Part shown: in pieces, positions 21,352 through 33,410 of the stretch
Position numbering within the stretch: position 1 is the stretch's first letter
How the letters are laid out: each line of letters opens with the position of its first letter
Source of the DNA: a virus
Taxonomy: Duplodnaviria; Caudoviricetes
DNA length: 64,000 nucleotides
IMG/VR virus record: IMGVR_UViG_2619619029_000002
Coordinates: 12,785-76,784 of that record
Direction: 5' to 3' (one strand)
Program-made: the position numbers and the translations under genes
Notes under the pieces: model-generated
What the model was told of the DNA's origin: nothing
Database searches by the model: none
What the model saw: only the letters and a program-made list of their open reading frames with translations

Positions 21352-22695
21352 TCAGCTACTCCTTGTTTTCTGCAACGACTCGATTCCTTTCCGGTCAAAA
21401 CGAATAGACCCACCAGTCGGCAGAGGGAGCGACACTTCTGCAGACGCCCCAAGAATGGCGGAGGCCAAGCGCTCCGAAGCATCAAGCGGCTCCTCTGATG
21501 CCGTATCTGAGCCAAAGAGCCCTGAACTGAGCCGATCAATCAGAATCGTCGGCGGTTCTGTCCCCTTCTCGGTCTTCCACTCCAGCGCTGTTTCCACTAG
21601 CCAACTCGCGCGGTCGAGATCCAAGCCGAGCCGCTTCAGACGGAACTCCTCAGAGGCATGCTGCTCAAGCCAGCGATTATTCCACTTAATATAAAACACA
21701 AGAGCGCTCACAAACCCCGCCGTCAGCGCAGCCTGCTTCACACCCCAAAACACCCATGCAGCAACAGATATTGGAACACCAGTAACAATCAAGTACACAT
21801 TCACAACCGATGACACGACGGTCAAAACCAGGAGACTACCCGCAAGCCACAAGCTCGCATTCTTGACTGGATTCCTAAGCTCTTTCGTCCCCTCGGTCAG
21901 ACTGAATTTCTCAGCACTGGCCTGCAGCTCCCTTTTCTGGTCCTTCCGAATCTCACGGCGAACGTGGCGAGTGTCGCGGTCATCAATCTCTGCCATCCTT
22001 CGCGTGATTTCCTTTTCTCGCGCTTCCAGGCTGGCCTCGCGCTCCTGAAGCATCGACGCAATTCGATTTCGTTCAACCACATTTGCAACATCAAGTTCAT
22101 GCCGACGAGCAACATACTCTTCTTCAAGCCGTGCGCGCGTCGCAGCAATTCCATCTGCAAGCTTCGCCGCCATCGAGCGCCCAAGCTCTTCCACCTTAAG
22201 CAACTCAACTTCACGGCGCTCCAAGAATTGCTTAGTCTCCCCCAAGCGCCCAAGTTGGCCAACAATGCCATCTCGGGCATCAAGGGCGCGCACTGCCCTC
22301 TTAAATGCAGCAACAAACGAAACCACTGCGGCAACCACAGCCGGGGACTCCCCAATGTGATTAAACTCGCTCAGACTAACGGTCACGTTATCCAATGCAG
22401 TGCCGGCTGCTCGTTGGATTTGCACCGAAAACTGGCGGTTCCCGTACGCCATGCCGACAGCAAGACTCGTAATTGCCATCGACTCGCTCGGGAGCGAATC
22501 CAGAATCAGACGACATGTCTTCACAGACTCATCACGCGCTGACAAAGCGGGCCCTATATCCAGCGTCGCGTCGACACTGATGATTCTGAATCCAGACTTC
22601 ACCACATCAGCTTCCGAAAATACTCCAAGAATCGCCGACAACAGCCCTTGGTCTGTCTGTCGCACCGCTTGGAACGAGAAGTTTGACCACCCCAT
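21352..22695 (-). CDS. lower-GC coiled-coil + 2-TM membrane protein (moron)
   Basis: Inserted between L and K; long heptad region, then two hydrophobic helices. Confidence 0.8.
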   Translation of the reverse strand: MGWSNFSFQAVRQTDQGLLSAILGVFSEADVVKSGFRIISVDATLDIGPALSARDESVKTCRLILDSLPSESMAITSLAVGMAYGNRQFSVQIQRAAGTALDNVTVSLSEFNHIGESPAVVAAVVSFVAAFKRAVRALDARDGIVGQLGRLGETKQFLERREVELLKVEELGRSMAAKLADGIAATRARLEEEYVARRHELDVANVVERNRIASMLQEREASLEAREKEITRRMAEIDDRDTRHVRREIRKDQKRELQASAEKFSLTEGTKELRNPVKNASLWLAGSLLVLTVVSSVVNVYLIVTGVPISVAAWVFWGVKQAALTAGFVSALVFYIKWNNRWLEQHASEEFRLKRLGLDLDRASWLVETALEWKTEKGTEPPTILIDRLSSGLFGSDTASEEPLDASERLASAILGASAEVSLPLPTGGSIRFDRKGIESLQKTRSS

Positions 22696-22743
22696 TAGAC
22701 AACCCCCTTGTCGAGTCAACTAGCCAGCCGAGCCGACACTATC

Positions 22744-23439
22744 TCATCGGAGAAGGCCGACGCCGGGAAAGCCTCCGAAGGGAAGCACGGAGGTTTCCCC
22801 GTAGCGCAGCTTGCAGCTCCCCAGGCGCTTCCCGCACCGGTCCTCCTCTGGTGACGTCGTCGGGCTGTCGTCCACCTTCGCCACGGGCGGGCCCACGTAG
22901 CCGCAGCCCTCCTTCCGGTACTCCCACCCGCACATCTGCGTGATGACGCGCAGCGGGATGCGGATGCCGTCCAGGTCGCACCGCGCCGCGAGCGCGAACT
23001 CGATGAAGTGCTTCGACTCGGACGTCTTCTGGTCCACCACGAACTCGTCATCGGGGAATGCCTCCACCGGGCTGGCGGTGGGGTTGACGCCGCCAGGGAA
23101 GTTCACCGCGTCGAGGTAGCGCACGAAGGTGCGCTTGCGGAGGACGCGCGCGCCCAGCAAGTCGTTGAAGTCCCGGGCCAGCGCGCCAATGGTGCCCGCC
23201 ACGTTGGCCATGGTGAGCGTGGGCCGCGGTAGTCGCCCCGTGCCCGACTTCTCGAAGCCCCGCGCCTCCACGGGCCAAGGCTGGTACTCCGCGCCCTGCC
23301 ACACCACCGGCCCACCCAGCCCGTTGGTGCCCGCGTGGAAGTAGCTGATGCCTCCGCCAGCCAGTGACGTGGCGTCCAGGACGAAGAGCTCCACGAGGGC
23401 GCCCGGCTCCAGCTTCTGAATGTCCTCGGCGATGCTCAC
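22744..23439 (-). CDS. minor tail protein L (lambda gpL-like)
   Basis: VELFVLD..PTLTMAN..RKRTFVRYLDAVNF; Cys cluster C..YR...C.Y...C.KRL..C..R; GTGA coupling. Confidence 0.93.
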   Translation of the reverse strand: MSIAEDIQKLEPGALVELFVLDATSLAGGGISYFHAGTNGLGGPVVWQGAEYQPWPVEARGFEKSGTGRLPRPTLTMANVAGTIGALARDFNDLLGARVLRKRTFVRYLDAVNFPGGVNPTASPVEAFPDDEFVVDQKTSESKHFIEFALAARCDLDGIRIPLRVITQMCGWEYRKEGCGYVGPPVAKVDDSPTTSPEEDRCGKRLGSCKLRYGETSVLPFGGFPGVGLLR

Positions 23440-24026
23440 CCTGCTTCCTCCTGGAACTCGGCGGAGACGTCGTAGGCGTTGAAGCCCTTCAGCGTGCTCG
23501 TCCACCGCTCGCAGACGACGCGCAGCACTTGGGCGCCGGCCGCGGTGAAGGTGAGCTGGGCGCCTGCGGGCGGCGCTGCCGAGAAGGTGACGAGCCCGGA
23601 AGGGGCGAGGGAGTAGTCGGACCCCTCCGCCAGCAGCACCCCGGCGCGGTACACGAGCGGCGCAGCCTCCCAGCCCACGGCGGGCACCAGCTCGTCCACC
23701 GTCGCGTCCGGAGCCAAGGGGCGCTGCAAGAGGAACTGCGTCCTGGCCCCGTCCCCGATGCCGAACGCCTGGCCAGTGACGCCCCAGGCGCTGTCCGGTG
23801 CCACGAACTCGAAGGCGGCCACTCCGCGGTGCGCGCGGAGGAAGGCGTCCACCGCGTCTGCCTCTTCCTTTCGGCGGGCAGTGAACTGGAGGGACCAGCG
23901 CTGGAGGAGGCCCCGGGCACCGTCCTCCGAGCGCTGGGAGTAGCCGTCGCCGAACTGGGCCTTGCGCACGCGCGGCTGGCTCTCAAGCTGGGCGCCCCAA
24001 CTCGGCGTGAAGGGGAAGCGTTCCAT
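23436..24026 (-). CDS. minor tail protein M (lambda gpM-like) with an inserted ~85-aa domain
   Basis: VRKAQFGDGYSQR..W.L.F...FL..H.G..AF.F and C-terminal V.CE.W....SAEFQE. Confidence 0.85.
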   Translation of the reverse strand: MERFPFTPSWGAQLESQPRVRKAQFGDGYSQRSEDGARGLLQRWSLQFTARRKEEADAVDAFLRAHRGVAAFEFVAPDSAWGVTGQAFGIGDGARTQFLLQRPLAPDATVDELVPAVGWEAAPLVYRAGVLLAEGSDYSLAPSGLVTFSAAPPAGAQLTFTAAGAQVLRVVCERWTSTLKGFNAYDVSAEFQEEAG

Positions 24027-24333
24027 GGCGCCATGTTCGCGGCATGGGTGGACCGCGTCCCGCGCCAAACCCGAGGCGTATGTCGTCGCGGCAGTCCAGC
24101 AGTCTAAACGTGTCTACCAAAGTGCGTCATCCCCCTGCAGAGGTACATTCTTCTCTGCCGCATGCCGCTAGGCTTCTACTCCCGATGACGGCGGCATCGC
24201 GCCTCCTCATCCCAGGAAGCACACTCGATGGAGTCCGGGGTAGTTAGTGACTCACCTCTAGCTGCTTGCTTTTGCGCTCCAGTAGATCGCACTCTCCGCC
24301 GCAATTTCAGGCCCACATCAGAGGAAGCCAAGG

Positions 24334-25236
24334 ATGGCGAAGTCTCGTCGGATGACGGTTCATTTCTATCGCGTGAACATGCCCCAAGGGCACGAGTTCC
24401 AGACCCTCCTTAACACCGTGTTCGGATTCTCAGCCGCCGAGAGATCTATCGAAGTCGGTGGGGTCCCCTATCGTTTGGAGTCCCTCACGATGGACAGCAG
24501 ATACTGCGAAGGAGAAATGGTTCGACTGCGCGAAGACTACCACCCCGGCAAGTACCGCATGGATGCACAAGGGGCGACCGACCTTGGATTGGCGGAAGAT
24601 GAGCTCATTGGTGAAGAAACGGCTTTCATCTATGACACCAGCCTGAACATTTTGGGACTTCAAAAGGTTCATGGCGGCGTTGCGGCCGGTGCCTTTGCTG
24701 GCTACTTCCGCCGGTTCATCCCGACCGCAGCAGACGCATTTGGACTGGAGGTCGTGCTGAGTGCGGACCCGGTTCGCCAGATGACACAGTTGCGCGAAGT
24801 GAAAACGTTCGAGGTAGAAGTCGCAGCTGTGCCAACGGACGTGTTTCACGGGATGGACACGATGAAGGCCCTCGCGAGAACGCAGGCTGAGTCAGGCGCT
24901 ACCCGCGTTACCCTGTCACTGGGGATGGGGAGAACGCGTGGAGGCGCCATCGAACGCAATTTTGTGGACGGCCTTCTCAGTAATCTCCTGCGGGTCTTTG
25001 CCGAGGAAGAACATGGGAAGAACGCCATCAAGAAGCTCAAGGTAGGCGGCCCTACTGGAGAAGACCTTGAGGTGCCGATTATCGACCTGCTTTCCCATCG
25101 GCTGGTCCACTACCAACGGTATGAATGGGATGACAGATACGTCCCTTATACTATGCGGCGCCCCCTAGTTAAGTGGGCGTACGAGGCTAGGGAGAACGAA
25201 CTCCGAACCGCATATGGCCCCAGGGCAAATTTATGA
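24334..25236 (+). CDS. DUF6731/DUF4747-like protein, first gene of a lower-GC two-gene moron
   Basis: MTVHFYRV..EETAFIYD..LGLQ..IDLLSHRL pattern; family call tentative. Confidence 0.6.
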   Translation: MAKSRRMTVHFYRVNMPQGHEFQTLLNTVFGFSAAERSIEVGGVPYRLESLTMDSRYCEGEMVRLREDYHPGKYRMDAQGATDLGLAEDELIGEETAFIYDTSLNILGLQKVHGGVAAGAFAGYFRRFIPTAADAFGLEVVLSADPVRQMTQLREVKTFEVEVAAVPTDVFHGMDTMKALARTQAESGATRVTLSLGMGRTRGGAIERNFVDGLLSNLLRVFAEEEHGKNAIKKLKVGGPTGEDLEVPIIDLLSHRLVHYQRYEWDDRYVPYTMRRPLVKWAYEARENELRTAYGPRANL

Positions 25237-25829
25237 CGACTCAGAGTCCTTCAACTTCAACACTATCCAGGAAGAAGAAGGTCGCCATCATCTGGGAACG
25301 GGTGTACCCCAGCACTGTTGGAGTGATTGTGACTGCTGCGGCTGCGGGCGCTCGCTGGAAGTTTCCCGAGTGGAAGCTTCCCAGCGACCTGGGGCAACTT
25401 TTCTCGTCCACCCTGGACCTTGGAGCCATCGCTATCGGATTCTTGGCGACCGCCAAGGCTGTCTTGCTCTCGATCCAAGGGAGCCCTGCCGTTACGAAGA
25501 TGCGAGGAACCGGCCTGTATGAAGGACTACTCAGATTCATTCTGAGAGCTATTCAAGCAACCTTCACTCTGGCGGCGTATAGCCTCGTAGCTATTTTCCT
25601 TGAGAAGGCTTTCGATCATTCGACGCTAAAATGGCAACTTGTCGTGCTCATATGGATTTTCTTGGTCGTTACAGCAGGACTCGCTTGCTACCGCGTTATT
25701 GACGTCTTCTTCACGATCCTCAGCCCTCGCGACATTTCGACACTTGCTCCTAAGGAGCAGAGTAGTTCTGCTACACCTCTCACTATCCTTCCTCCTTCGC
25801 GGAAGGAACCGATGCAAGGTGATAACTGA
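25233..25829 (+). CDS. multi-pass (about 4 TM) membrane protein
   Basis: Four hydrophobic segments; ATGA-coupled to the previous gene. Confidence 0.8.
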   Translation: MTTQSPSTSTLSRKKKVAIIWERVYPSTVGVIVTAAAAGARWKFPEWKLPSDLGQLFSSTLDLGAIAIGFLATAKAVLLSIQGSPAVTKMRGTGLYEGLLRFILRAIQATFTLAAYSLVAIFLEKAFDHSTLKWQLVVLIWIFLVVTAGLACYRVIDVFFTILSPRDISTLAPKEQSSSATPLTILPPSRKEPMQGDN

Positions 25830-25849
25830 AACGCCCCTCCGTACTCGCT

Positions 25850-25976
25850 GCGGTGAGCCCCCTGAGCCATCCCCTCATTTGAAGATTCCCCTTGGAGAAC
25901 GCATGGGCAGCCGAGCGAGCAAGCTCAGAGGGGAAATCGAGAATGAGGGGATGCTTCAGGTGATCCCCCTCACCGC
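25850..25976. repeat. long imperfect inverted repeat (about 125-nt hairpin)
   Basis: 25861-25880 vs 25941-25960 17/20 complementary; GCGGTGAG/CTCACCGC outer pair; GATTCCCC/GGGGAAATC inner pair. Confidence 0.8.
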
Positions 25977-26138
25977 TTCCGGTTGACGAATCCTCCGGGC
26001 CGCATCTCCTCCAGCATGACCCGGCGGACAGCTCCACCCAGGTGCTGCCCAGGCGCCGCGACTCCTCCGTCGTGCCAAGCGTCTGGACGTCCGCGCTCAC
26101 CGAGCCGTCCTGGTGCACGTTGAGGGGCGGCACGGAGC
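25970..26138 (-). pseudogene. degenerate duplicate of the tape-measure gene 3' end
   Basis: Encodes VPPLNVHQDGSVSADVQ..GTTEESRRLG, a 1-nt deletion, then RRVMLEEMRPGGFVNRKR*; matches 29700-29890. Confidence 0.92.
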
Positions 26139-26147
26139 CAGCGTCCC

Positions 26148-26603
26148 CTACTCCCCCAACCAGAAAGAGCGACCGCCGCTCTTCAGCGCTCGAGCGAGGA
26201 ACTCCTCGAATGACGGTGCAATCGGGTCCACCTTCGGGAATGTCTCATGGAAGGCGTCGAACAGAGGGTACCTTGGGGACTTCGGCTCCACGTCGACGAC
26301 GACGTAGTTGGTGTCCTGCATGTCGACCAGGGCATACAGCGACGGTGAGCCGTAGGCGTCTTCGTCGCGGCCGAAGATTGCGACGCGCGCACGTCGAATC
26401 TCCGCCAGCGGGAGAATCCGATAGTCCGCGTCAGGGACAGGCTCGAAGAGCGCCGCTCCATCGCAGTGGAGGTAGAAGGCTCGCAAGTCAGCATCAAGCT
26501 TCCAGCCCACGCGAGCCTCGAATGCCGCGATTTGGGCAGGCGTCGCGGGAGCGTTGGGGAAGTGGTGTCGCGAGACTTCGGCGAGCAGGGAGTCGATGGG
26601 CAT
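26148..26603 (-). CDS. SMI1/KNR4 (SUKH) immunity protein
   Basis: PATPAQIAAFEARVGWKLDADLRAFYLHCDG..IAPSFEEFL. Confidence 0.9.
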   Translation of the reverse strand: MPIDSLLAEVSRHHFPNAPATPAQIAAFEARVGWKLDADLRAFYLHCDGAALFEPVPDADYRILPLAEIRRARVAIFGRDEDAYGSPSLYALVDMQDTNYVVVDVEPKSPRYPLFDAFHETFPKVDPIAPSFEEFLARALKSGGRSFWLGE

Positions 26604-26610
26604 GGCCGCC

Positions 26611-27252
26611 TCAGTCCACGTAGGGCCGCTCCGGCCCCACGGCTCGCCACTTGCCAGCAGCGTCGTAACAAGCCGGGTAGGCGCTGTTGATGACGTGATG
26701 CACGCCGGGCGGCACAGGAATCACATTGTCGGGAGCCAAGGGAGCGCCCCCATGCGCCAAGTCGAAGATGTGGTGGCCAGGCCAATGCGCCGTCTCCGTC
26801 TTCGGCCAGTCCCCGAACTCCGAGCTCCACTGCCTGCGGAACGTCTTCCGCGCGTCCTCCCACGTCTCGCGTCGATGCTTGAGGTCCGACACCTTGGGGT
26901 AGTCGCAGCAGCAGTGGGTGACGGCCAAGCGCCCGCCCGCAGCGGCCGGAAGCGCCATGAAGCGCCCCTGCCAGTCGCCCTTGATGTCCGCGAGCCAGAT
27001 GCAGCCGAGCAGCGGGACGTGCCCCTCGGCCACGCACCGCCGCTCACAGCGCGCCATGAGCGCGGCACTGCACAGCCAGGGTCCGTAGTAGATGGTCGTC
27101 TGCACCGTCCCACCTGCCGGGCTCGGGATGCTCGGGCCCACCCACTTCGCCGAGGGCTTCGCGCCCACGGCGCTGACGGTGGCCGAGCCGCAGCCGCCAA
27201 GGGCGAGCAGCAGGGACACTCTCACGAAGTGCTGGCAGCGCCATGGCTTCAC
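26611..27252 (-). CDS. lipoprotein HNH/colicin-DNase-like toxin (SitA-like)
   Basis: Lipobox LLLALGGC; Cys-rich middle domain; GHHIFDLAHGG...N......HH nuclease motif; SUKH gene follows. Confidence 0.8.
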   Translation of the reverse strand: MKPWRCQHFVRVSLLLALGGCGSATVSAVGAKPSAKWVGPSIPSPAGGTVQTTIYYGPWLCSAALMARCERRCVAEGHVPLLGCIWLADIKGDWQGRFMALPAAAGGRLAVTHCCCDYPKVSDLKHRRETWEDARKTFRRQWSSEFGDWPKTETAHWPGHHIFDLAHGGAPLAPDNVIPVPPGVHHVINSAYPACYDAAGKWRAVGPERPYVD

Positions 27253-27539
27253 GCAAAACGTGATAGCGCAGACAAAGCAGACGCATAAGTCACCGACTCC
27301 ACGGCTGCCGTGGTGGGTAGGGACCAGTGGCAGACGCTGTCCCTACAGCGCCCGGCCGCGGCATCGGACGCGGGGTGCGGTCCATGTCCGCCCTGCTCGC
27401 CACGACTACACCTACTGCACGTGCATTCAGGCACACCCGGAATGTCAGGCCCGCATGTCAGAAGGGCCGATGGCGCCACAACCCAGGCGGTCGCCGCAGG
27501 ACTCGCCAGGAGTGGAGCCTTTCCTTGGAGGGGACACGC

Positions 27540-28373
27540 ATGCCGCACTGCAGGCCCAACGCACTTCAGCCATTCATGTTCGACAACACCCCGGTCCGGA
27601 CCGTCATCGGGCCGGACGGAGAGCCGTGGCTGATGGCCACCGACGTCTGCGCGATCCTTGGTCTTTCCAACCCGCGCGACGCAGTGGGCCGCCTTGACGA
27701 CGATGAAAAGGCGACCGTCGGTAATGCCGACGGTCAGCCTGGACGCGGGGCACAGACGTTCAACATCATCAGCGAGTCCGGTGTCTGGGCGCTCACGATG
27801 CGGAGCCGAAAGCCCGAGGCGAAGCGCTTCCGGAAGTGGGTGACGAAGGAGGTCATCCCGTCCATCCGGAAGACGGGGGCCTACAACCCTTCCATGGCGA
27901 CGGTCCGCCAAGCCGTAGCGGAGCGTTTCCTCCGCGTCGGCCTGGCGCCCTGGATGAAGCGCTTCCCGGACGCATTCTACGAGGAGATTTTCCGACTGCG
28001 AGGCTGGCCGTGGCAGGGGCCAGGCACTCCACGCCCGGGTGTCATTGCCTACTACACCAACGACCTCATCTACGAGAGGCTGGCGCCAGACCTTCTGCGG
28101 ATGCTCCGCGAGCGCAATCCGGTGGATGCCCACACCAAGAAGCGTCCCTCGAAGCACCACCAACACCTGAGCGATGACGTCGGCCATCCGGGCTTGGAAC
28201 GGCACCTGTACTCCGTCATCTGCATCATGCGTAGTTCGTCCACATGGGATGACTTCATGATTCAGATGGACCGCATCCACCCGCGTTGGGGGAACAGCCT
28301 CCTTCTTCCTCTCATGAACGAACTGCTGCTGCCGCAGCCCCAATCGCCCGCCCCCGCGGTCTTTCCATCCTGA
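27540..28373 (+). CDS. BRO-N + P63C domain antirepressor-like protein
   Basis: F.FDNTPVRTV..GEPW..DVC.ILG.SNPRDA..RKPEAKRFRKWVTKEVIPSIRKTG; W.KRFPD.FY.EIFRL..KHHQHL. Confidence 0.9.
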   Translation: MPHCRPNALQPFMFDNTPVRTVIGPDGEPWLMATDVCAILGLSNPRDAVGRLDDDEKATVGNADGQPGRGAQTFNIISESGVWALTMRSRKPEAKRFRKWVTKEVIPSIRKTGAYNPSMATVRQAVAERFLRVGLAPWMKRFPDAFYEEIFRLRGWPWQGPGTPRPGVIAYYTNDLIYERLAPDLLRMLRERNPVDAHTKKRPSKHHQHLSDDVGHPGLERHLYSVICIMRSSSTWDDFMIQMDRIHPRWGNSLLLPLMNELLLPQPQSPAPAVFPS

Positions 28374-28447
28374 GAAATTCTGGCATGGTGGCTCCAGTCC
28401 CCCGACAAGGAGCCACCGTGGCTAGCAATTCCAGGCAGCGGCACAGA

Positions 28448-28954
28448 ATGGACTTCCTTTGGCGCGTTCGCGAGGCGCTGGCACTGCCCTACTCACTCGT
28501 GGTGCGAGGCGGGGTCCTCGTGTGGCGCCGTGACTCGTACATCAGCACCATGCAGTTCACCGACTACGGTGGGCCAAAAGAAATCGACCGGGTCGACGCA
28601 AACGGGACGTGCTTCTCGCCATCAAGGCAGATGCTCCGGCGCCTGGGGTTCGACTCGCGGGTCTCCTATGTCTCTAGAGACCCTCTACAGCGACGCCTTC
28701 AACTCACAGCCACAGTCGAGGAGTTTCCCGCCCTCGCTCCGTGGCTCGCAGACGAGCTCGGCGCCCGGCTCAGCGGCCTGAACCTCCCTCCATGCCCTGT
28801 TCCGCTCAGCGGCATCAGGGGAGACCACAACATCTGGACCAACTCAGCCAGGGCTGACTATGCCGCATGGGCGAAAGAGGAACAGCTCAAGCGCGACCAG
28901 CAGCGCCAACGCCGCCAGACGGCCTTGATGCACTTTGCCCCCGCGACGCATTGA
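28448..28954 (+). CDS. hypothetical protein
   Basis: 168-aa ORF downstream of the BRO gene. Confidence 0.6.
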   Translation: MDFLWRVREALALPYSLVVRGGVLVWRRDSYISTMQFTDYGGPKEIDRVDANGTCFSPSRQMLRRLGFDSRVSYVSRDPLQRRLQLTATVEEFPALAPWLADELGARLSGLNLPPCPVPLSGIRGDHNIWTNSARADYAAWAKEEQLKRDQQRQRRQTALMHFAPATH

Positions 28955-28960
28955 GCCCAC

Positions 28961-28985
28961 TCACCTCGGCCGGTTGACGAAGTCG
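28961..28985 (-). repeat. 25-bp copy of the last codons of the tape-measure gene
   Basis: TCACCTCGGCCGGTTGACGAAGTCG vs TCACCTCCGCCGGTTGACGAAGTCG at 29700-29724 (24/25). Confidence 0.9.
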
Positions 28986-29011
28986 CACCCCAAGCCAGCC
29001 GCATAGGGAAT

Positions 29012-29040
29012 CGGCCCGCCCCAGAACCTCGGGCGGGCCG
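29012..29040. terminator. GC-rich hairpin between convergent genes
   Basis: CGGCCCGCCC-9 nt-GGGCGGGCCG perfect 10-bp stem. Confidence 0.55.
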
Positions 29041-29100
29041 CCGCACGAGAACAGCCTCCGACTCAAGAACTTGAATCGGTCTCGCGCCTCTCAAAACCAC

Positions 29101-29511
29101 TCACAAAGAAACCGAAATAGGCAGCGTATCTCCCCCATCAGGGGACGTGCCGCGCGATTCCCATACGCCCGGGATATAACCAGAGCGGTCTTCGACCGTG
29201 CATGACGACACACCGTAACATGTTTTGCCATTCGACGACCACAGCGGGCCTGCTGGGAAAGCCAACCTGGCTTGCAAATTAATAACAGGCTGAACCGAAT
29301 CACACACAACGGTAGCTGTTGCCCCCACGCTAATGGGACCAGAGGGGCCGGAAATAACATACGGAGGGGTAACGCTCGTTGAGCACCCCGGAACGACCGA
29401 CTGCTCCTGCGCCACATGGCCTTCACCCATCTCCTCAGGCATGTCCGGCCCGCAACCAGCAGCAACAAGCATCGCACTTGCACTCAAAATCAGAACCACT
29501 GGCCTCTTCAT
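29101..29511 (-). CDS. small Cys-containing lipoprotein (moron)
   Basis: AGGAG RBS; MKRPVVLILSASAMLVAAG-C lipobox; lower GC. Confidence 0.75.
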   Translation of the reverse strand: MKRPVVLILSASAMLVAAGCGPDMPEEMGEGHVAQEQSVVPGCSTSVTPPYVISGPSGPISVGATATVVCDSVQPVINLQARLAFPAGPLWSSNGKTCYGVSSCTVEDRSGYIPGVWESRGTSPDGGDTLPISVSL

Positions 29512-29699
29512 GGAGTCTCTCCTTGGTGATCGGGTTGAGGCGTCCAGCATAGACAGCTTACCTGGGGATACCAAAGGCAATGCGATGTCGGAGCAATCGT
29601 TGCGAAATGACCGCCAATTGCCGAGCATCTTCAGCTTGACATTCTAAGCGCCGCGCATGCTCCCATCCGCTAATGAGAAGCTAGAGCGGCTCTCACTCT

Positions 29700-32600
29700 T
29701 CACCTCCGCCGGTTGACGAAGTCGTAGACGAAGCCTCCGGGCCGCATTTCCTCCAGCATTACCCGGCGGACAGCCCCACCCAGGTGCTGGCCCAGGCGCC
29801 GCGACTCCTCCGTCGTGCCAGGCGCTTGGACGTCCGCACTCACCGAGCCGTCCTGATGCACGTGCACGTTCACGTTGATGGGCGGCACGGCGCCGGCCGG
29901 GAACGTGTCGGTGCTCGCCGGCGCGCTCGGCACCACCAGCTTCGCCGCGCCGTCCGCATAGGGCGCGCCGCTCTTCATCACGGCGGGCGCGGACATGTCG
30001 AACGCGGACTTGCCCGCCGCGACGCCTGCTCCTGCAGTGGCTCCTCCCGCGCTGAAGCTCGCCCCCGTTATGCCGCCCAGGAGGGCCGTGGTGCCGATGT
30101 CCACCAGGGCCACGAATGCCTTGTGGGCCAGGAGCCGCGACAGGTCCTTGAGCATTCCGTCAATCATGCCGCGCCAGGTGAACTGCGTGGAGGTGGCGAA
30201 GGTGGTGATGGCGTCTTCCATGTGCTGGGCAGCGAAGCCCACTGCGTCCTGGGCAATGGAGAAACCGTCGCTCATCTGCCGGTGCAGGCGCACCAGTTCC
30301 TTCTGGTACGTCTCCATGCTGATGCGCTCGTCCTGCAACAGCTTGTTCAGCATCTCGACGCGCTTCCGCACCTCCTCCAGTGGGTTGAGCTGCTTCTGGA
30401 GCAGCTCCAGGTCCTTCACCAGTTGAGCCTCCTCCTTCCCCTCCTTCGTCCAGAGGGAGCGGGCCTTCGCGAGCTTTGCTCCATACTCCTCCGCCTTAAT
30501 GGTGCCCGCAGCCAAGCCGGCGTTCAGTGCCTCCACGGCCTTGGCCATTCGGTCCGCGTCAGCGTCCCCGAGTTGCTGATTCAGTTGCTCAAGGGCGCGC
30601 GCGTGCTCCTCCGCCTTTTTCTTGGCTTCCTCGTCGGCCTTCTTCTTCGCCTCAAACGCTGCAATTTTCTCAAGTGCAGCGTCTGCTACTAGCCGCTGCG
30701 CGTAGTTCAGAGATTTGTACTCAGCCGTGAGCTTCTCGGCCCCCTCTCGCGCGAGCCCCAGCGTAGCCGCCTCTTCCTCGAGCTTTGCCAGATACCTCGC
30801 GGCGGACTTCGCCAGTTCCGCCCTGGCCTTTTCCTCGTTCTGGAGGCGCTCCGCCTCCTGTTCACGGGCACGCGCCGTGGCGGCAGCCGCGTCAGCCTCA
30901 CGCTGGTGGGCGCCGGGGTCATAGGCCACAGCCTCCCTAACGCGCGCGAGTGCCTTCTCCAACTCCGCCGAGTCCTGAGTAGCCGACTGCAAGTCCTTGC
31001 GAAGTTCCTTGACGCTTTTGGGCAGGTATCGCGGTTCGAAGTCCTTCACGATCTTGTCGGCGCGAGGGTCCTCGTCATCAACCAGGACGCGATTCAGCAC
31101 GCGGGTCCGGAATTCCGCCTCCTCGGCTTGGAGCCGCTCCTTGATGCTCTTCACACGAGCCTGGTTGAGCTCCGTTTCATGCTTGGCCACCTTCTCGAAG
31201 ACGGCCAGCGCCTGCTCCGCCGTCTTGACCTCATCGGTCATCATGGTCTGGTAGTCGCCACCAAGCGCCGCCAGTTCCTTCCGTGCGATGGACAGCACCT
31301 GAGCAGCCTTCGCTGCATCTGTCGTCGCGCGGGTCTGTTGGAGCAGGTCGGACACAATCGAGGCGCTCTTCCCGACGCTGGTAGCAGCAGCTGTTCCAAG
31401 TTCTCGGGCCTTCACAGCGGCATCCTCTGCCCTGGAGATGTAGGCGGAGATTCCCGCCGTCAGGAGGCCAATCGCGGTGATGGCGACGCCGATGGGCCCA
31501 CCGAGCGCGGCCATAGCCCCCTGGAGCACGCGACCGGCCCCCGCAGCTCCGTACATCGCTTGCGCGGCGCGCACCTGCGCCAGCGCGTTGTCATTCGCGG
31601 CAATCGCGGCCTGGGCATGCGCGGCCCGCATGAAGGGCGCCGTCTGCTGGAGGGACGACTGGCGAGCCTCAAGCTGGACGGCCGCGTTCCGCAATGCAGC
31701 CCGGGAGCTCTCGTTGACTGCCTTGACGTAGCCCGCTTCTGCGAGCGCCGCATTCGTTGTCGCCTGCCGGCTCTGGACCAGTGCCGATGCCTTCGCGGCG
31801 GCGCTCTTCACCCATTCAGCCGCCCATGCGCCGCCTCTGGCTGCCAGGAGAATCCCCACGGCCTGGGCCGTCGCGCCAGCTGAACTCGACAGCGTGGTGA
31901 AGTTGCTGGAGAGCATCTCGATGCCGGGCATCAACTGCGCCAGGAGCCCCTGCCCCACCGCGATTTCGAGGTCGTCGAACTTCGCTTTCAGTTGGTCCAG
32001 GGCGAACTGAGGCGTCTGGGCCATCTTGCTGAAGGCGACCTCGGTGCGTCCTGCTGCCGACTCCATGTTCTTCAACGACGTGGCGAAGTCGCCAGCGCTG
32101 GACCCGGTCAGCGTCATTGCGGGAAGCAGCGCCTCCACACCACCTACAAGCTTGGCCAGCAACTCCGTGCTACCACCCGTTTGGACCTTGAGGTGGTCCA
32201 GGAACCCTGCGAGCCCCCGCGCCTTCAGCCCTGCCGTGTTGAATTCGATGCCGAGGGCACGCGCCAGGTCCCGGGCCTCGTTCGACGGCTTGGCAACCTG
32301 GGCAAGGATGGCTCGCATCCCTTCCATCGCCGTCTCCGTCTTGATGCCGGCCTTCGTGAGTGCAGCGGTCGCGGCAAGCAACTCCTGGAGCGACACGCCC
32401 GTCTGCGAGGCGATGGGCGCCAGCTTGCCGATGTGCCTCGCAATCTGCTCAATGGACGTCTTGCCATCCGCAGCGGAGACGAACATCGCATCGGAGGCCT
32501 CCGTGGCGTCCCGGAGTTGAGAGCCGTAGCTGGCCATGATGGATGTGAGTCCGTCAGCAGCAACCCCCACCTCCGTGACGCCACCAATGGCCAGCTTGTT

Positions 32601-33410
32601 TGAGACGCGAAGCAACTCCGTTGCCTGAGAAGCATCGCTCGCACCGGCGCTCATGACTTCGTAGAGCGCCTTCACCTGCTCCGTAGGGGCTCGTCCAAAC
32701 TCCACCCCCAATTCGCGGGCGCGGTCGGCGAGGGCCCCCATCATGTTGACCTGGTCGCCCTCCAGCAGGGTGCTCACCTGGGCCATGGCCGTATCGAAGG
32801 CAAGCGCCTCTGATGCGGCACTCGTGAGCGAGGCGATTACCGTGGCGATGACAGCGGCAAGCCCGAGGAACGACTTCACTAGGCCGCCGAGCTCCTGCGA
32901 GAGCCGATTGACCGGTTTCTCGACTCCTTCAACTGAGCGTTTGACGTCCTGCACAGACGTCGCGGCTTGGGTGGACTCGACCTGCATCCGTGAGAGATTG
33001 GTGCTGGCCTTCCCCAACTCCCCCATAAAGCGGCTTACAGCAGAGGTGTCCGCGAAGGACGCGTGGAGTTTGACCGCGGCGGCATCCAGTGCCCCGATCC
33101 GCGTCTTGAAGCCGTCCAGACCAGAGGCGTCCTTCAACGCGCCCTGGAACGCGGTCGCTGCGGCCCCCATCGCCTCCATGTCCTTGATGGAGGTCCTCAT
33201 TCGGGCCAGCGCCTGGTTCGTTTCGTTCGCCTCCTTGACCATCCGCGCCAAGCTCTTCGAGTACTGCTCGGTCGCGGTCTCGGTTTTCTTGGTGGCCGTC
33301 TCCGTCTTCTCGGCCGCCGCGCTAAATTTCGTCAGCTCGACGGATCCCGCCTTCGCGTCGGACGTGTCGATACGGACTGAAAGCGTTGCGAGGTCCGTCC
33401 CACCAGACAT
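29700..33410 (-). CDS. tape measure protein (TP901-family core)
   Basis: 1236 aa, Ala-rich helical; ALYEVMSAG..LA.GG.T..A...L..AT.AL.K.G core; follows the G/GT chaperones. Confidence 0.95.
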   Translation of the reverse strand: MSGGTDLATLSVRIDTSDAKAGSVELTKFSAAAEKTETATKKTETATEQYSKSLARMVKEANETNQALARMRTSIKDMEAMGAAATAFQGALKDASGLDGFKTRIGALDAAAVKLHASFADTSAVSRFMGELGKASTNLSRMQVESTQAATSVQDVKRSVEGVEKPVNRLSQELGGLVKSFLGLAAVIATVIASLTSAASEALAFDTAMAQVSTLLEGDQVNMMGALADRARELGVEFGRAPTEQVKALYEVMSAGASDASQATELLRVSNKLAIGGVTEVGVAADGLTSIMASYGSQLRDATEASDAMFVSAADGKTSIEQIARHIGKLAPIASQTGVSLQELLAATAALTKAGIKTETAMEGMRAILAQVAKPSNEARDLARALGIEFNTAGLKARGLAGFLDHLKVQTGGSTELLAKLVGGVEALLPAMTLTGSSAGDFATSLKNMESAAGRTEVAFSKMAQTPQFALDQLKAKFDDLEIAVGQGLLAQLMPGIEMLSSNFTTLSSSAGATAQAVGILLAARGGAWAAEWVKSAAAKASALVQSRQATTNAALAEAGYVKAVNESSRAALRNAAVQLEARQSSLQQTAPFMRAAHAQAAIAANDNALAQVRAAQAMYGAAGAGRVLQGAMAALGGPIGVAITAIGLLTAGISAYISRAEDAAVKARELGTAAATSVGKSASIVSDLLQQTRATTDAAKAAQVLSIARKELAALGGDYQTMMTDEVKTAEQALAVFEKVAKHETELNQARVKSIKERLQAEEAEFRTRVLNRVLVDDEDPRADKIVKDFEPRYLPKSVKELRKDLQSATQDSAELEKALARVREAVAYDPGAHQREADAAAATARAREQEAERLQNEEKARAELAKSAARYLAKLEEEAATLGLAREGAEKLTAEYKSLNYAQRLVADAALEKIAAFEAKKKADEEAKKKAEEHARALEQLNQQLGDADADRMAKAVEALNAGLAAGTIKAEEYGAKLAKARSLWTKEGKEEAQLVKDLELLQKQLNPLEEVRKRVEMLNKLLQDERISMETYQKELVRLHRQMSDGFSIAQDAVGFAAQHMEDAITTFATSTQFTWRGMIDGMLKDLSRLLAHKAFVALVDIGTTALLGGITGASFSAGGATAGAGVAAGKSAFDMSAPAVMKSGAPYADGAAKLVVPSAPASTDTFPAGAVPPINVNVHVHQDGSVSADVQAPGTTEESRRLGQHLGGAVRRVMLEEMRPGGFVYDFVNRRR

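Follow-up and report, generated by a model that had tools for sequence, protein, structure and literature searches.

In the 64,000-nucleotide stretch of Myxococcus prophage DNA analyzed here (the window), two partial, probably non-functional copies of the 3′ end of the tape-measure (TMP) gene lie between TMP and gpM, the gene for minor tail protein M, exactly at the boundaries between layers of cargo genes. The best reading makes these scars by-products of exchange between related phages, with swapping of TMP alleles as well. In each of them, probably, the end of an earlier TMP allele was displaced and stayed behind when additive recombination brought in a TMP together with new cargo.

Copies of the Tape-Measure Gene End

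The intact TMP gene (29700–33410, minus strand; 1,236 aa; GC3 0.80) matches Pfam PhageMin_Tail (3.7e-27) and Tape_meas_lam_C, and its stop reads TCA on the plus strand at 29700–29702. The last ∼200 nt of this gene served as the reference copy of the repeat. A preliminary description of this DNA had placed the TMP 3′ end at three sites (29700, 28961–28985, and ∼25970), and all three were recovered there, in one orientation and sharing CCGGTTGACGAA as described; the partial copies are real TMP 3′ ends. Scar 2 (28961–28996, minus strand) covers the final 36 nt of a TMP gene, stop included, and its translation reads …CDFVNRPR*. The 25-bp core noted earlier (28961–28985) is indeed 24/25 identical to the TMP end, and the similarity runs on to 36 nt at 86% identity (E 1.4e-4 against the whole genome). 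With up to three mismatches allowed, the 25-mer occurs at only two places in the window, the TMP end and scar 2, where 100 shuffles gave an expectation of zero. Scar 3 (25966–26142, minus strand; stop at 25970–25972), the frameshifted copy previously given as ∼170 bp, comprises ∼177 nt of the TMP 3′ end at 89.7% identity overall, with two blocks at 91–93% (E 1e-51, whole-genome search). Three deletions mark it: 12 nt close to the stop, 1 nt that accounts for the frameshift, and a further 12 nt. The whole 9.24-Mb genome held no further copies, bar one weak and unrelated 54-nt match.

Cargo Between TMP and gpM

Proceeding from TMP, the order is layer A, scar 2, layer B, scar 3, layer C, and gpM (23436–24026, minus strand; Pfam Phage_min_tail, 8.8e-23), which forms the right-hand border; the gene content of the three layers agrees with the preliminary description. 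GC content is 0.50–0.66 over 24.1–29.7 kb vs. 0.69–0.73 in gpM and gpL. Homology with relatives restarts ∼30–40 nt upstream of the gpM start codon, and no repeat lies between layer C and gpM.

Layer A carries a lipoprotein gene of lower GC (29101–29511, minus strand; MKRPVVLILSASAMLVAAGC…) encoding 136 aa, not the 175 first reported, with a signal peptide, a VAAGC lipobox, and a hydrophobic N-terminus. It has no Pfam or PADLOC match and no homologs in 150 other Myxococcaceae genomes (151 searched, its own genome being the sole match). The GC-rich hairpin 3′ of this gene (29013–29039, minus strand; 9-bp stem GGCCCGCCC/GGGCGGGCC; −34.3 kcal/mol, z −2.0 in folding vs. shuffles) is likely the terminator closing layer A; a second hairpin, proposed beside scar 3, folds no better than shuffled sequence (z −0.46).

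Layer B is a composite of independently shuffled modules. A doubtful 222-aa open reading frame (28286–28954, plus strand; from the ORF list, no Pfam match) is convergent with scar 2, their two stops lying 7 nt apart, and the closest relative, L193, has a TMP and a convergent ORF in matching geometry. Next to it is a BRO-N and P63C DNA-binding protein (27327–28373, probable start 27540, plus strand; Pfam P63C 2.5e-28, Bro-N 1.7e-23), relatives of which also occupy the TMP–gpM gap of loci L099 and L101, in the opposite orientation in L099. The layer ends in a toxin–immunity module (26144–27321, minus strand), a discrete unit whose ends coincide in four contexts: the window, the Myxococcus hansupus chromosome (L190, 89%), L193 (95.8%), and soil contig L199. 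It comprises a lipoprotein with a GHH-type motif (26611–27252, minus strand; 213 aa by translation; LLLALGGC lipobox and GHH…HH motif) and, immediately downstream, a SUKH/SMI1_KNR4 immunity protein (26148–26603, minus strand; Pfam). Scar 3 starts 2–5 nt past the natural end of this module. A possible terminal inverted repeat at the module ends matched over only ∼5–8 nt and was taken as chance. In Myxococcaceae, 56 of 151 genomes carry members of the toxin–SUKH family, which is multi-copy, and near-identical pairs occur in M. xanthus, in Myxococcus sp. MxC21-1, and on three further contigs; L190, L192, and L193 all carry the module without TMP ends.

SitA/SitI lipoprotein toxin systems sit on Mx-alpha prophages of Myxococcus (PMC5562445), and the window pair resembles them as a lipoprotein toxin with a nuclease-type motif and a SUKH-family immunity gene on a myxobacterial prophage, with lipobox, toxin motif, and downstream immunity gene all present. 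It differs in having no sitB-like ORF upstream and in its short toxin, conserved over the whole length.

Layer C encodes a DUF6731 protein (24334–25236, plus strand; Pfam, 1.8e-16) and a multi-pass membrane protein (25233–25829, plus strand), which together form a module spanning 24259–25830. This two-gene module recurs in a Pyxidicoccus trucidator island (L177; 74.6% over 24259–25744). Both it and toxin–SUKH are also found at chromosomal sites outside phages, where no TMP end accompanies them. PADLOC returned no match for any cargo protein, and scans of the cargo ORFs with Pfam and PADLOC recognized no integrase, transposase, or resolvase, in line with the earlier claim that the cassettes encode no recombinase.

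A Cargo Hot Spot in Related Prophages

In nine related prophage loci of myxobacteria, TMP and gpM are conserved as flanks, and the cargo in between differs from locus to locus (1.7–6.5 kb where measurable). TMP and gpM abut in 113 of 123 other lambda-like loci (median gap 6 nt over the 123), and gaps exceeding 400 nt were confined to myxobacterial loci, with a single exception of 555 nt. Within the lambda-like prophages, a cargo hot spot between TMP and gpM is thus a peculiarity of this myxobacterial clade. Defence-like cargo elsewhere in the hot spot includes Kiwa KwaB (L199), a caspase-like protein (M. eversor), and Mrr_cat (L097).

Scars were present in three of the nine loci, a small sample: the window (two), M. 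eversor L031 (one, ∼280 nt), and soil contig L199 (two, r1 and r2). The expectation that relatives would carry variable cassettes bounded by TMP-end repeats thus held for the variable cargo and for the two other scarred loci; the remaining six have equally rich cargo and no scars. When eight prophages were compared with themselves, the scars were the only dispersed repeats in the ∼20-kb tail module. The M. eversor scar locus is present in two collections, and a contig joining SUKH to a TMP stump was also found in a soil metagenome run.

The backbone of L193 is 94–95% identical to that of the window on both flanks. Its TMP matches at ∼75% at the 5′ end, not at all in the middle, and at ∼87% over the last 750 nt; the last 250 nt are ∼69% identical. 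Because the flanks are so similar and TMP so strongly diverged, TMP alleles are exchanged together with the hot spot. L193 has neither scars nor layer A, and in place of scar 3 and layer C it carries a 29–38% identical DUF6731 and membrane pair in the other orientation. The six scar-free loci, L193 with its toxin–SUKH module among them, argue against the TMP end as the route by which cassettes enter.

Shape and Divergence of the Scars

Every scar (n = 5) runs to the stop-codon end of TMP, with cargo of its own behind it, frequently starting with a convergent ORF. The 5′ cuts all differ, giving lengths of ∼36, 75, 177–180, 235, and 280 nt, and no joint showed clear microhomology. The L031 scar keeps ∼72 in-frame codons ending in the conserved motif QPGGxxYNF..RR, and L199 r1 keeps 61; some scars show frameshifts, deletions, or a lost or shifted stop. 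Live TMP alleles of the group to which scar 3 belongs are 84.6–88% identical to each other, vs. 89.7% between scar 3 and the resident gene. Values of pN/pS between scar and TMP were 0.10–0.55 (∼0.3 for scar 3, ∼0.5 for the L031 scar), and those between live alleles 0.03–0.60. Identity along the L031 scar is mosaic: 92% in the first 124 nt, ∼67% in the remainder. By these measures the scars look like other alleles rather than decayed self-copies. As scar–TMP differences lean synonymous and neutral decay predicts a pN/pS of ∼1, decay after duplication is disfavored.

Scar 3 is nearest to the resident TMP (∼90%), a closeness that could also stem from in-situ duplication long ago or from gene conversion. 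In both the window and L199, SUKH is followed by a TMP stump, with stump alleles that differ and joints displaced by ∼50 nt; this sharing would need two events, or later conversion and deletion. Scar 3 and L199 r2 have in common a 12-nt deletion and the sequence CGGAAG. A hybrid origin of scar 3 from L199 r1 (5′ part) and r2 (3′ part) was considered and rejected, since by segment identity scar 3 lies nearest the resident TMP over its whole length, with nothing but that deletion and CGGAAG linking it to r2. What looked like a duplicated gpM start in L199 is in fact a ∼180-nt MITE-like insertion bearing inverted ends. Remnants of the gpM 5′ end, which a symmetric off-register model predicts, were absent from all cargo regions.

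Proposed Origin of the Scars

From the layout of scars and cargo we infer the following mechanism and order of events. Two related phages or prophages with different cargo would recombine out of register, the left crossover being homologous and lying in or upstream of TMP, and the right joint being illegitimate or formed over very short homology just inside the 3′ end of the other genome's TMP. The product would have one whole TMP and newly gained cargo, with all the old cargo kept behind the old TMP stump; a scar would then represent the 3′ end of a displaced TMP allele, earlier or foreign, with its native cargo still behind it. Repeats of this additive event would build layers, the youngest adjoining TMP. 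Addictive toxin–immunity pairs may favor adding cargo over replacing it, and the prophage's own ERF-family annealing protein (C25:101328–101777) may play a role; Rad52-like phage annealing recombinases drive relaxed homologous recombination and mosaicism (PMC3945230). Because no parent phage with a TMP directly before layer C or layer B was found, the donors are deduced; DUF6731 homologs were located (the P. trucidator island and a short Logan contig), neither adjoining a TMP. Five TMP-3′ scars and zero gpM-5′ scars are not what a random off-register model predicts, so selection or bias must be added to it.

A bolder reading, which we regard as improbable, would make the TMP 3′ end a preferred directional landing zone at which an ERF-type protein or a factor in trans repeatedly joins TMP-plus-cargo segments. 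If so, cargo would stack by order of arrival, as an integron-like array without an integrase, addictive toxin–immunity pairs would force additions rather than replacements, and cassettes could later be lost, and the TMP C-terminus switched, with the stumps as handles.

Also improbable is duplication of the local TMP end in situ, by an insertion through a transposition-like event, replication slippage, or template switching, followed by decay of the downstream copy. Scars 2 and 3 are indeed closest to the resident TMP allele group, and scar 3 shows marks of decay, being frameshifted and having lost 12 nt twice between short repeats in the manner of slippage. Against this stand the synonymous bias and the mosaic L031 scar described above, as well as the ∼10% difference between scar 3 and TMP, which exceeds the ∼5% backbone divergence from L193, itself without scar 3. 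Lengths of 36–280 nt are far above known target-site duplications, and unequal sister exchange would have duplicated the intervening cargo too, which was not seen.

We give about the same low credence to the idea that stumps are kept for a function, either as RecA/ERF homology handles for loss or swapping of cassettes and TMP C-termini or as signals for transcribing or translating the cargo downstream. Direct repeats of 177 nt at ∼90% identity can recombine; the deletion and CGGAAG that scar 3 shares with L199 r2, next to a 5′ part like the resident TMP, hint at past exchange; and orphan Rhs modules are known to be reactivated by such recombination (PMC3967940). The damaged reading frames and stops, the variable lengths, the lack of stumps in most relatives, and the non-significant hairpin at scar 3 all speak against a retained function, as does the absence of a deletion junction in contigs of the source strain, although contigs cannot show rare variants.

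Site-specific integration, in which a recombinase acting in trans would insert circular cassettes at an att-like core in the TMP 3′ end, regenerating TMP and leaving a partial repeat, is very improbable. In its favor, direct repeats that contain the 3′ terminus of the gene and have CCGGTTGACGAA in common lie on either side of cargo layers; only TMP-3′ and never gpM-5′ scars occur; and the prophage does encode a tyrosine integrase (C25:96381–96884, at the prophage end outside the window). Yet five scar lengths have no common 5′ edge and no constant core, and the scars are diverged and allele-like rather than copies of the resident end. Nor does this reading sit well with cassettes free of recombinase genes, a layer C–gpM boundary free of repeats, six loci with cargo alone, or toxin–SUKH and DUF6731 modules residing elsewhere without TMP ends.

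Chance similarity or assembly artefact can be dismissed: although this is a draft genome, and the repeats interrupt Logan contigs of the source run, such breaks are a k-mer effect and no evidence of rearrangement, zero matches are expected at random, and equivalent scars occur in independent assemblies (M. eversor and L199) and in the soil metagenome contig.

Comparison With Known Systems

As in tandem islands at tRNA 3′ ends, to which the array had been likened, a gene's 3′ end is directly repeated between stacked elements with the intact gene at one end. The analogy fails in that the window cassettes lack both an integrase and an invariant core, and that the repeats, diverged alleles, vary in length and have only the stop-codon end in common.

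The parallel drawn with orphan modules of polymorphic toxins holds in part. Orphan toxin/immunity modules follow rhs and cdiA genes, with orphan Rhs of Salmonella as an example (PMC3967940). There, as in the additive recombination proposed for TMP, a new 3′ part and its companions displace the old, which is kept downstream behind a fragment of the conserved gene; successive events yield an ordered array, and fragments can recombine with the main gene. A TMP fragment likewise heads the displaced module at scars 2 and 3, the L031 scar, and L199 r1 and r2. What is missing is an in-frame fusion to a toxic C-terminal domain: the conserved gene here is a phage structural gene, scar lengths are arbitrary, and scars end at the TMP stop, with cargo genes separate and often on the other strand. 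Because these genes are independent of the fragment, the fragment does not make a displaced module re-expressible.

The stacked TMP-end scars are a variant of known phage mosaicism. The hot spot shares with moron accretion and the mosaic joints of lambdoid and temperate phages its lower-GC, self-contained, variable genes between conserved late genes, and with relaxed-recombination mosaicism the exchange between phages and defective prophages and an encoded ERF-family annealing protein (PMC3945230). Unlike the usual, traceless mosaic joints, gene-end stumps here record additive events, and they do so at what is normally a tight junction. The site between core genes, the variable content, and the deviant base composition are features of moron or accessory-gene hot spots. 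Prophage and satellite hot spots of anti-phage systems in P2/P4 (PMC9122126) similarly hold interchangeable defence-like cargo at a fixed locus between core genes; the TMP–gpM hot spot belongs to another phage family and position, also carries lipoprotein toxin–immunity pairs, and has layers marked by scars.

Significance

As a rule, end products that bear no trace of their making are all there is to infer phage mosaicism and moron gain from. The TMP stumps would instead put successive additions to a single hot spot on record, in order and datable, and because they record additions in order, the route by which prophages accumulate toxin–immunity and defence genes becomes testable. Tape-measure alleles are swapped between prophages that are otherwise 95% identical. 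The hot spot between TMP and gpM is also a source of candidate defence systems (the DUF6731 and membrane pair, Kiwa, caspase-like, and Mrr-like) and of lipoprotein toxin–immunity pairs relevant to kin discrimination in Myxococcus.

Cargo Between the Tape-Measure Gene and gpM

The window, which has a GC content of 68% and derives from a genome of the Myxococcus/Pyxidicoccus group, carries a lambda-like prophage tail module on its minus strand. The tape-measure gene (TMP; 29700-33410, −; PhageMin_Tail, Tape_meas_lam_C) is followed by gpM (23436-24026, −; Phage_min_tail) and gpL (22744-23505, −; Phage_tail_L), with 5.67 kb between the TMP stop and gpM. GC in this interval is 0.50-0.66, vs. 0.69-0.73 in the tail genes. 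Three cargo layers occupy it. Layer A, next to TMP, is a 136-aa lipoprotein gene (29101-29511) with a strong hairpin after it; layer B comprises a doubtful ORF, a BRO-N/P63C protein, and what is called below the toxin-SUKH pair, a lipoprotein of 213 aa bearing a GHH-type motif together with a SUKH immunity protein; and layer C, on the strand opposite to the tail genes, encodes a DUF6731 protein and a membrane protein. This gene content agrees with the preliminary description, as does the lack of any recombinase match among the cargo proteins, none of which matched a PADLOC defence model either (Pfam and PADLOC searches). The GHH-type lipoprotein (26611-27252, −) is one of a large family of paralogues, with conservation along almost the entire protein, matches in 56 of 151 Myxococcaceae genomes, and up to 9 copies per genome.

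A second lower-GC insertion (21352-22719, −) lies between gpL and gpK and consists of a 455-aa ORF with two hydrophobic segments and no match in Pfam. The same slot holds a different ORF (193 aa) in L193, the closest relative, and three other loci (L029, L031, and L192) have insertions at gpM-gpL instead. Two genes on the left side, outside the window, encode a tyrosine integrase (G000:C25:96381-96884; 12 kb before the window start) and an ERF-family single-strand annealing protein (G000:C25:101328-101777; 7 kb before it), and are probably the lysogeny and recombination genes of the prophage.

Partial TMP Ends in the Window

Two partial copies of the TMP 3′ end separate the layers. Copy 3, between layers B and C (25966-26142), matches the terminal ∼200 nt of TMP as two blocks at 91-93% identity, with one deletion of 1 nt and two of 12 nt. 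Copy 2, between layers A and B (28961-28996), corresponds to the last 36 nt, with a core identity of 24/25; allowing as many as three mismatches, the 25-mer of this core occurred nowhere else in the window and was absent from 100 shuffles. Searching the TMP end against the whole 9.24-Mb genome returned only these copies and one weak, unrelated 54-nt match. Both copies include the stop codon and share the orientation of TMP, copy 2 translating as ...CDFVNRPR* and copy 3, across its frameshift, as ...VPPLNVHQDGSVSADVQTLGTTEESRRLG/QHLGGAVRRVMLEEMRPGGFVNRKR*. On identity, shuffles, and whole-genome search, the repeated TMP ends noted earlier are thus real.

A Hot Spot Specific to the Myxobacterial Clade

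Relatives gathered by gpM-anchored searches gave a small sample of nine loci, the window included: Myxococcus sp. Y35 (L029), Pyxidicoccus caerfyrddinensis (L030), M. eversor (L031), three IMG/VR prophages (L097, L099, and L101), a Logan contig from another isolate (L193), and a soil metagenome contig (L199). In eight of the nine (window counted), 1.7-6.5 kb of mutually unrelated cargo lies between TMP and gpM; L199 lacks an intact TMP, so its gap length is not measurable. The relatives' cargo includes a caspase-like protein (Peptidase_C14; L031:6776-7633, −), an Mrr-type nuclease (Mrr_cat; L097:8808-9962, +), and a transglutaminase-like protein (transglutaminase-core; L101:8791-9384, +), all three candidates for defence functions, as well as Kiwa KwaB and BRO/P63C proteins. 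In the 123 lambda-like loci that contain a TMP-like ORF (within L029-L176, gpM-anchored, from genome and viral collections), the median TMP-gpM gap was 6 nt. Only myxobacterial loci and one 555-nt case (L096) exceeded 400 nt, so the hot spot is specific to the myxobacterial clade.

In L199, a Kiwa-type pair (L199:8456-9951), made up of a 181-aa protein and KwaB (Pfam 6.6e-20), lies behind a TMP stump and immediately upstream of gpM. This gpM is itself split by a MITE-like insertion of ∼180 nt (L199:10124-10307) whose terminal inverted repeats read TTCTCGAACGG / CCGTTCGAGAA. Mu-type baseplate genes occur in the upstream portion of the contig, which marks L199 as a chimeric or degraded prophage remnant.

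Stumps Recur With Variable Cuts and Resemble Other TMP Alleles

Stumps were also found in M. eversor (one of ∼280 nt, 2.1 kb downstream of its TMP) and in L199, where r1 directly follows a toxin-SUKH pair with 97-99% protein identity to that of the window and r2 lies 0.8 kb past r1, ahead of the Kiwa genes. A short soil-metagenome contig likewise joins the SUKH end to an L199-type stump, showing that this arrangement exists outside the isolate, although the soil sample may be related to the source of L199. In self-comparisons of eight prophages (∼20 kb of tail module each), TMP stumps were the only dispersed repeats, and no gpM 5′ fragment occurred in any cargo region searched.

TMP-end repeats recur in relatives, but their shape does not suggest a dedicated site. 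All stumps reach the TMP stop codon, followed by their own cargo; their 5′ cuts fall at about −36, −75, −180, −235, and −280 nt. Five differing cuts leave no constant core, which counts against an att-type site.

Decay of self-copies is also at odds with the alleles involved. Copy 3 shares 89.7% identity with the resident TMP end, and pairwise identity among live alleles of its group (window, Y35, and L097) is 84.6-88%. For stumps vs. TMPs, pN/pS was 0.10-0.55, inside the spread between live alleles (0.03-0.60) and far under the neutral value of 1. About 72 in-frame codons are kept in the M. eversor stump, which ends in the conserved QPGGxxYNF..RR motif, and 61 in r1. The former matches its resident TMP at 92% over the first 124 nt and at about 67% over the remainder, a mosaic pattern. 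From these comparisons, the stumps look like other TMP alleles rather than decayed self-copies.

The Closest Relative and the Movement of Cargo

L193, the most informative relative, matches the window at 94-95% identity on either flank. Its TMP (L193:2052-5741) shares about 75% identity with that of the window at the 5′ end, is unalignable in the middle, and recovers to about 87% across the final 750 nt, although its last 250 nt match at only about 69%. Different alleles on near-identical backbones indicate that TMP alleles are exchanged between such prophages. Its hot spot reads TMP, a convergent ORF plus BRO-N/ANT, toxin-SUKH, a DUF6731-like plus membrane pair, and gpM, and contains neither a stump nor layer A. 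The toxin-SUKH pair is 95.8% identical to that of the window and ends alike at 27321 and 26147; the DUF6731-like pair (L193:8556-9907) is 29-38% identical, in opposite orientation, in the same gpM-adjoining slot. The L193 DUF6731 reading frame, called at 142 aa, is apparently interrupted.

The 9 nt that follow the stop of the intact L193 TMP (GAGGGCTCA) resemble those after copies 2 (GTGGGCTCA) and 3 (GGGGGATCA), and are unlike those after the intact TMP of the window. In L193, and likewise at copy 2, a convergent ORF ends 7 nt away from the TMP stop. Given these shared features, each stump with the cargo behind it appears to be what was once a native TMP-cargo junction.

Cargo modules also occur away from TMP ends. 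Toxin-SUKH is present in the M. hansupus chromosome at 89% identity with the same boundaries and zero phage genes within 10 kb, and lies 0.87 kb from gpM in the degraded prophage L192 of another genome. The DUF6731-membrane pair recurs in a P. trucidator island, and the BRO/P63C gene in the L099 hot spot in opposite orientation. The modules thus move independently of TMP ends. What L192 (G020:C28:1-19560) retains is part of gpL together with gpM and a toxin-SUKH pair at 77% identity; the place expected for TMP is taken by ankyrin, ABC-ATPase, and Usp genes.

Copy 3 begins 2-5 nt past the point where the toxin-SUKH module naturally ends. The corresponding joint in L199 retains about 55 nt more, so the window joint was probably trimmed.

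Additive Recombination as the Probable Source of the Stumps

The stumps most likely arose when related phages or prophages that differed in cargo recombined out of register. One crossover would be homologous, in or upstream of TMP, and the other joint, illegitimate or of very short homology, would fall slightly within the 3′ end of the partner's TMP; the product would carry one intact TMP, new cargo, the stump of the other TMP, and old cargo. An additive event sparing the downstream cargo would have to break upstream of it, and, with a native TMP-cargo spacer of only about 10 nt, usually inside the TMP 3′ region. Phage annealing recombinases are known to favour relaxed recombination in which defective prophages take part (PMC3945230), and the ERF-family protein and integrase encoded by the prophage just left of the window suggest that an annealing recombinase may have a role. 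The model does not explain the stump asymmetry (five TMP 3′ ends vs. zero gpM 5′ ends), nor why the window and L199 share the same SUKH end with different stump alleles behind it, and no parent phages were identified among the loci compared.

The preliminary interpretation is partly supported: the stumps would be scars left where phages recombined additively at a hot spot of this clade, rather than traces of a dedicated insertion system. In its workings the arrangement resembles the formation of orphan modules at rhs and cdiA (PMC3967940), but with stumps and cargo unfused it falls outside that class. It is a variant of known phage mosaicism and of orphan-module formation.
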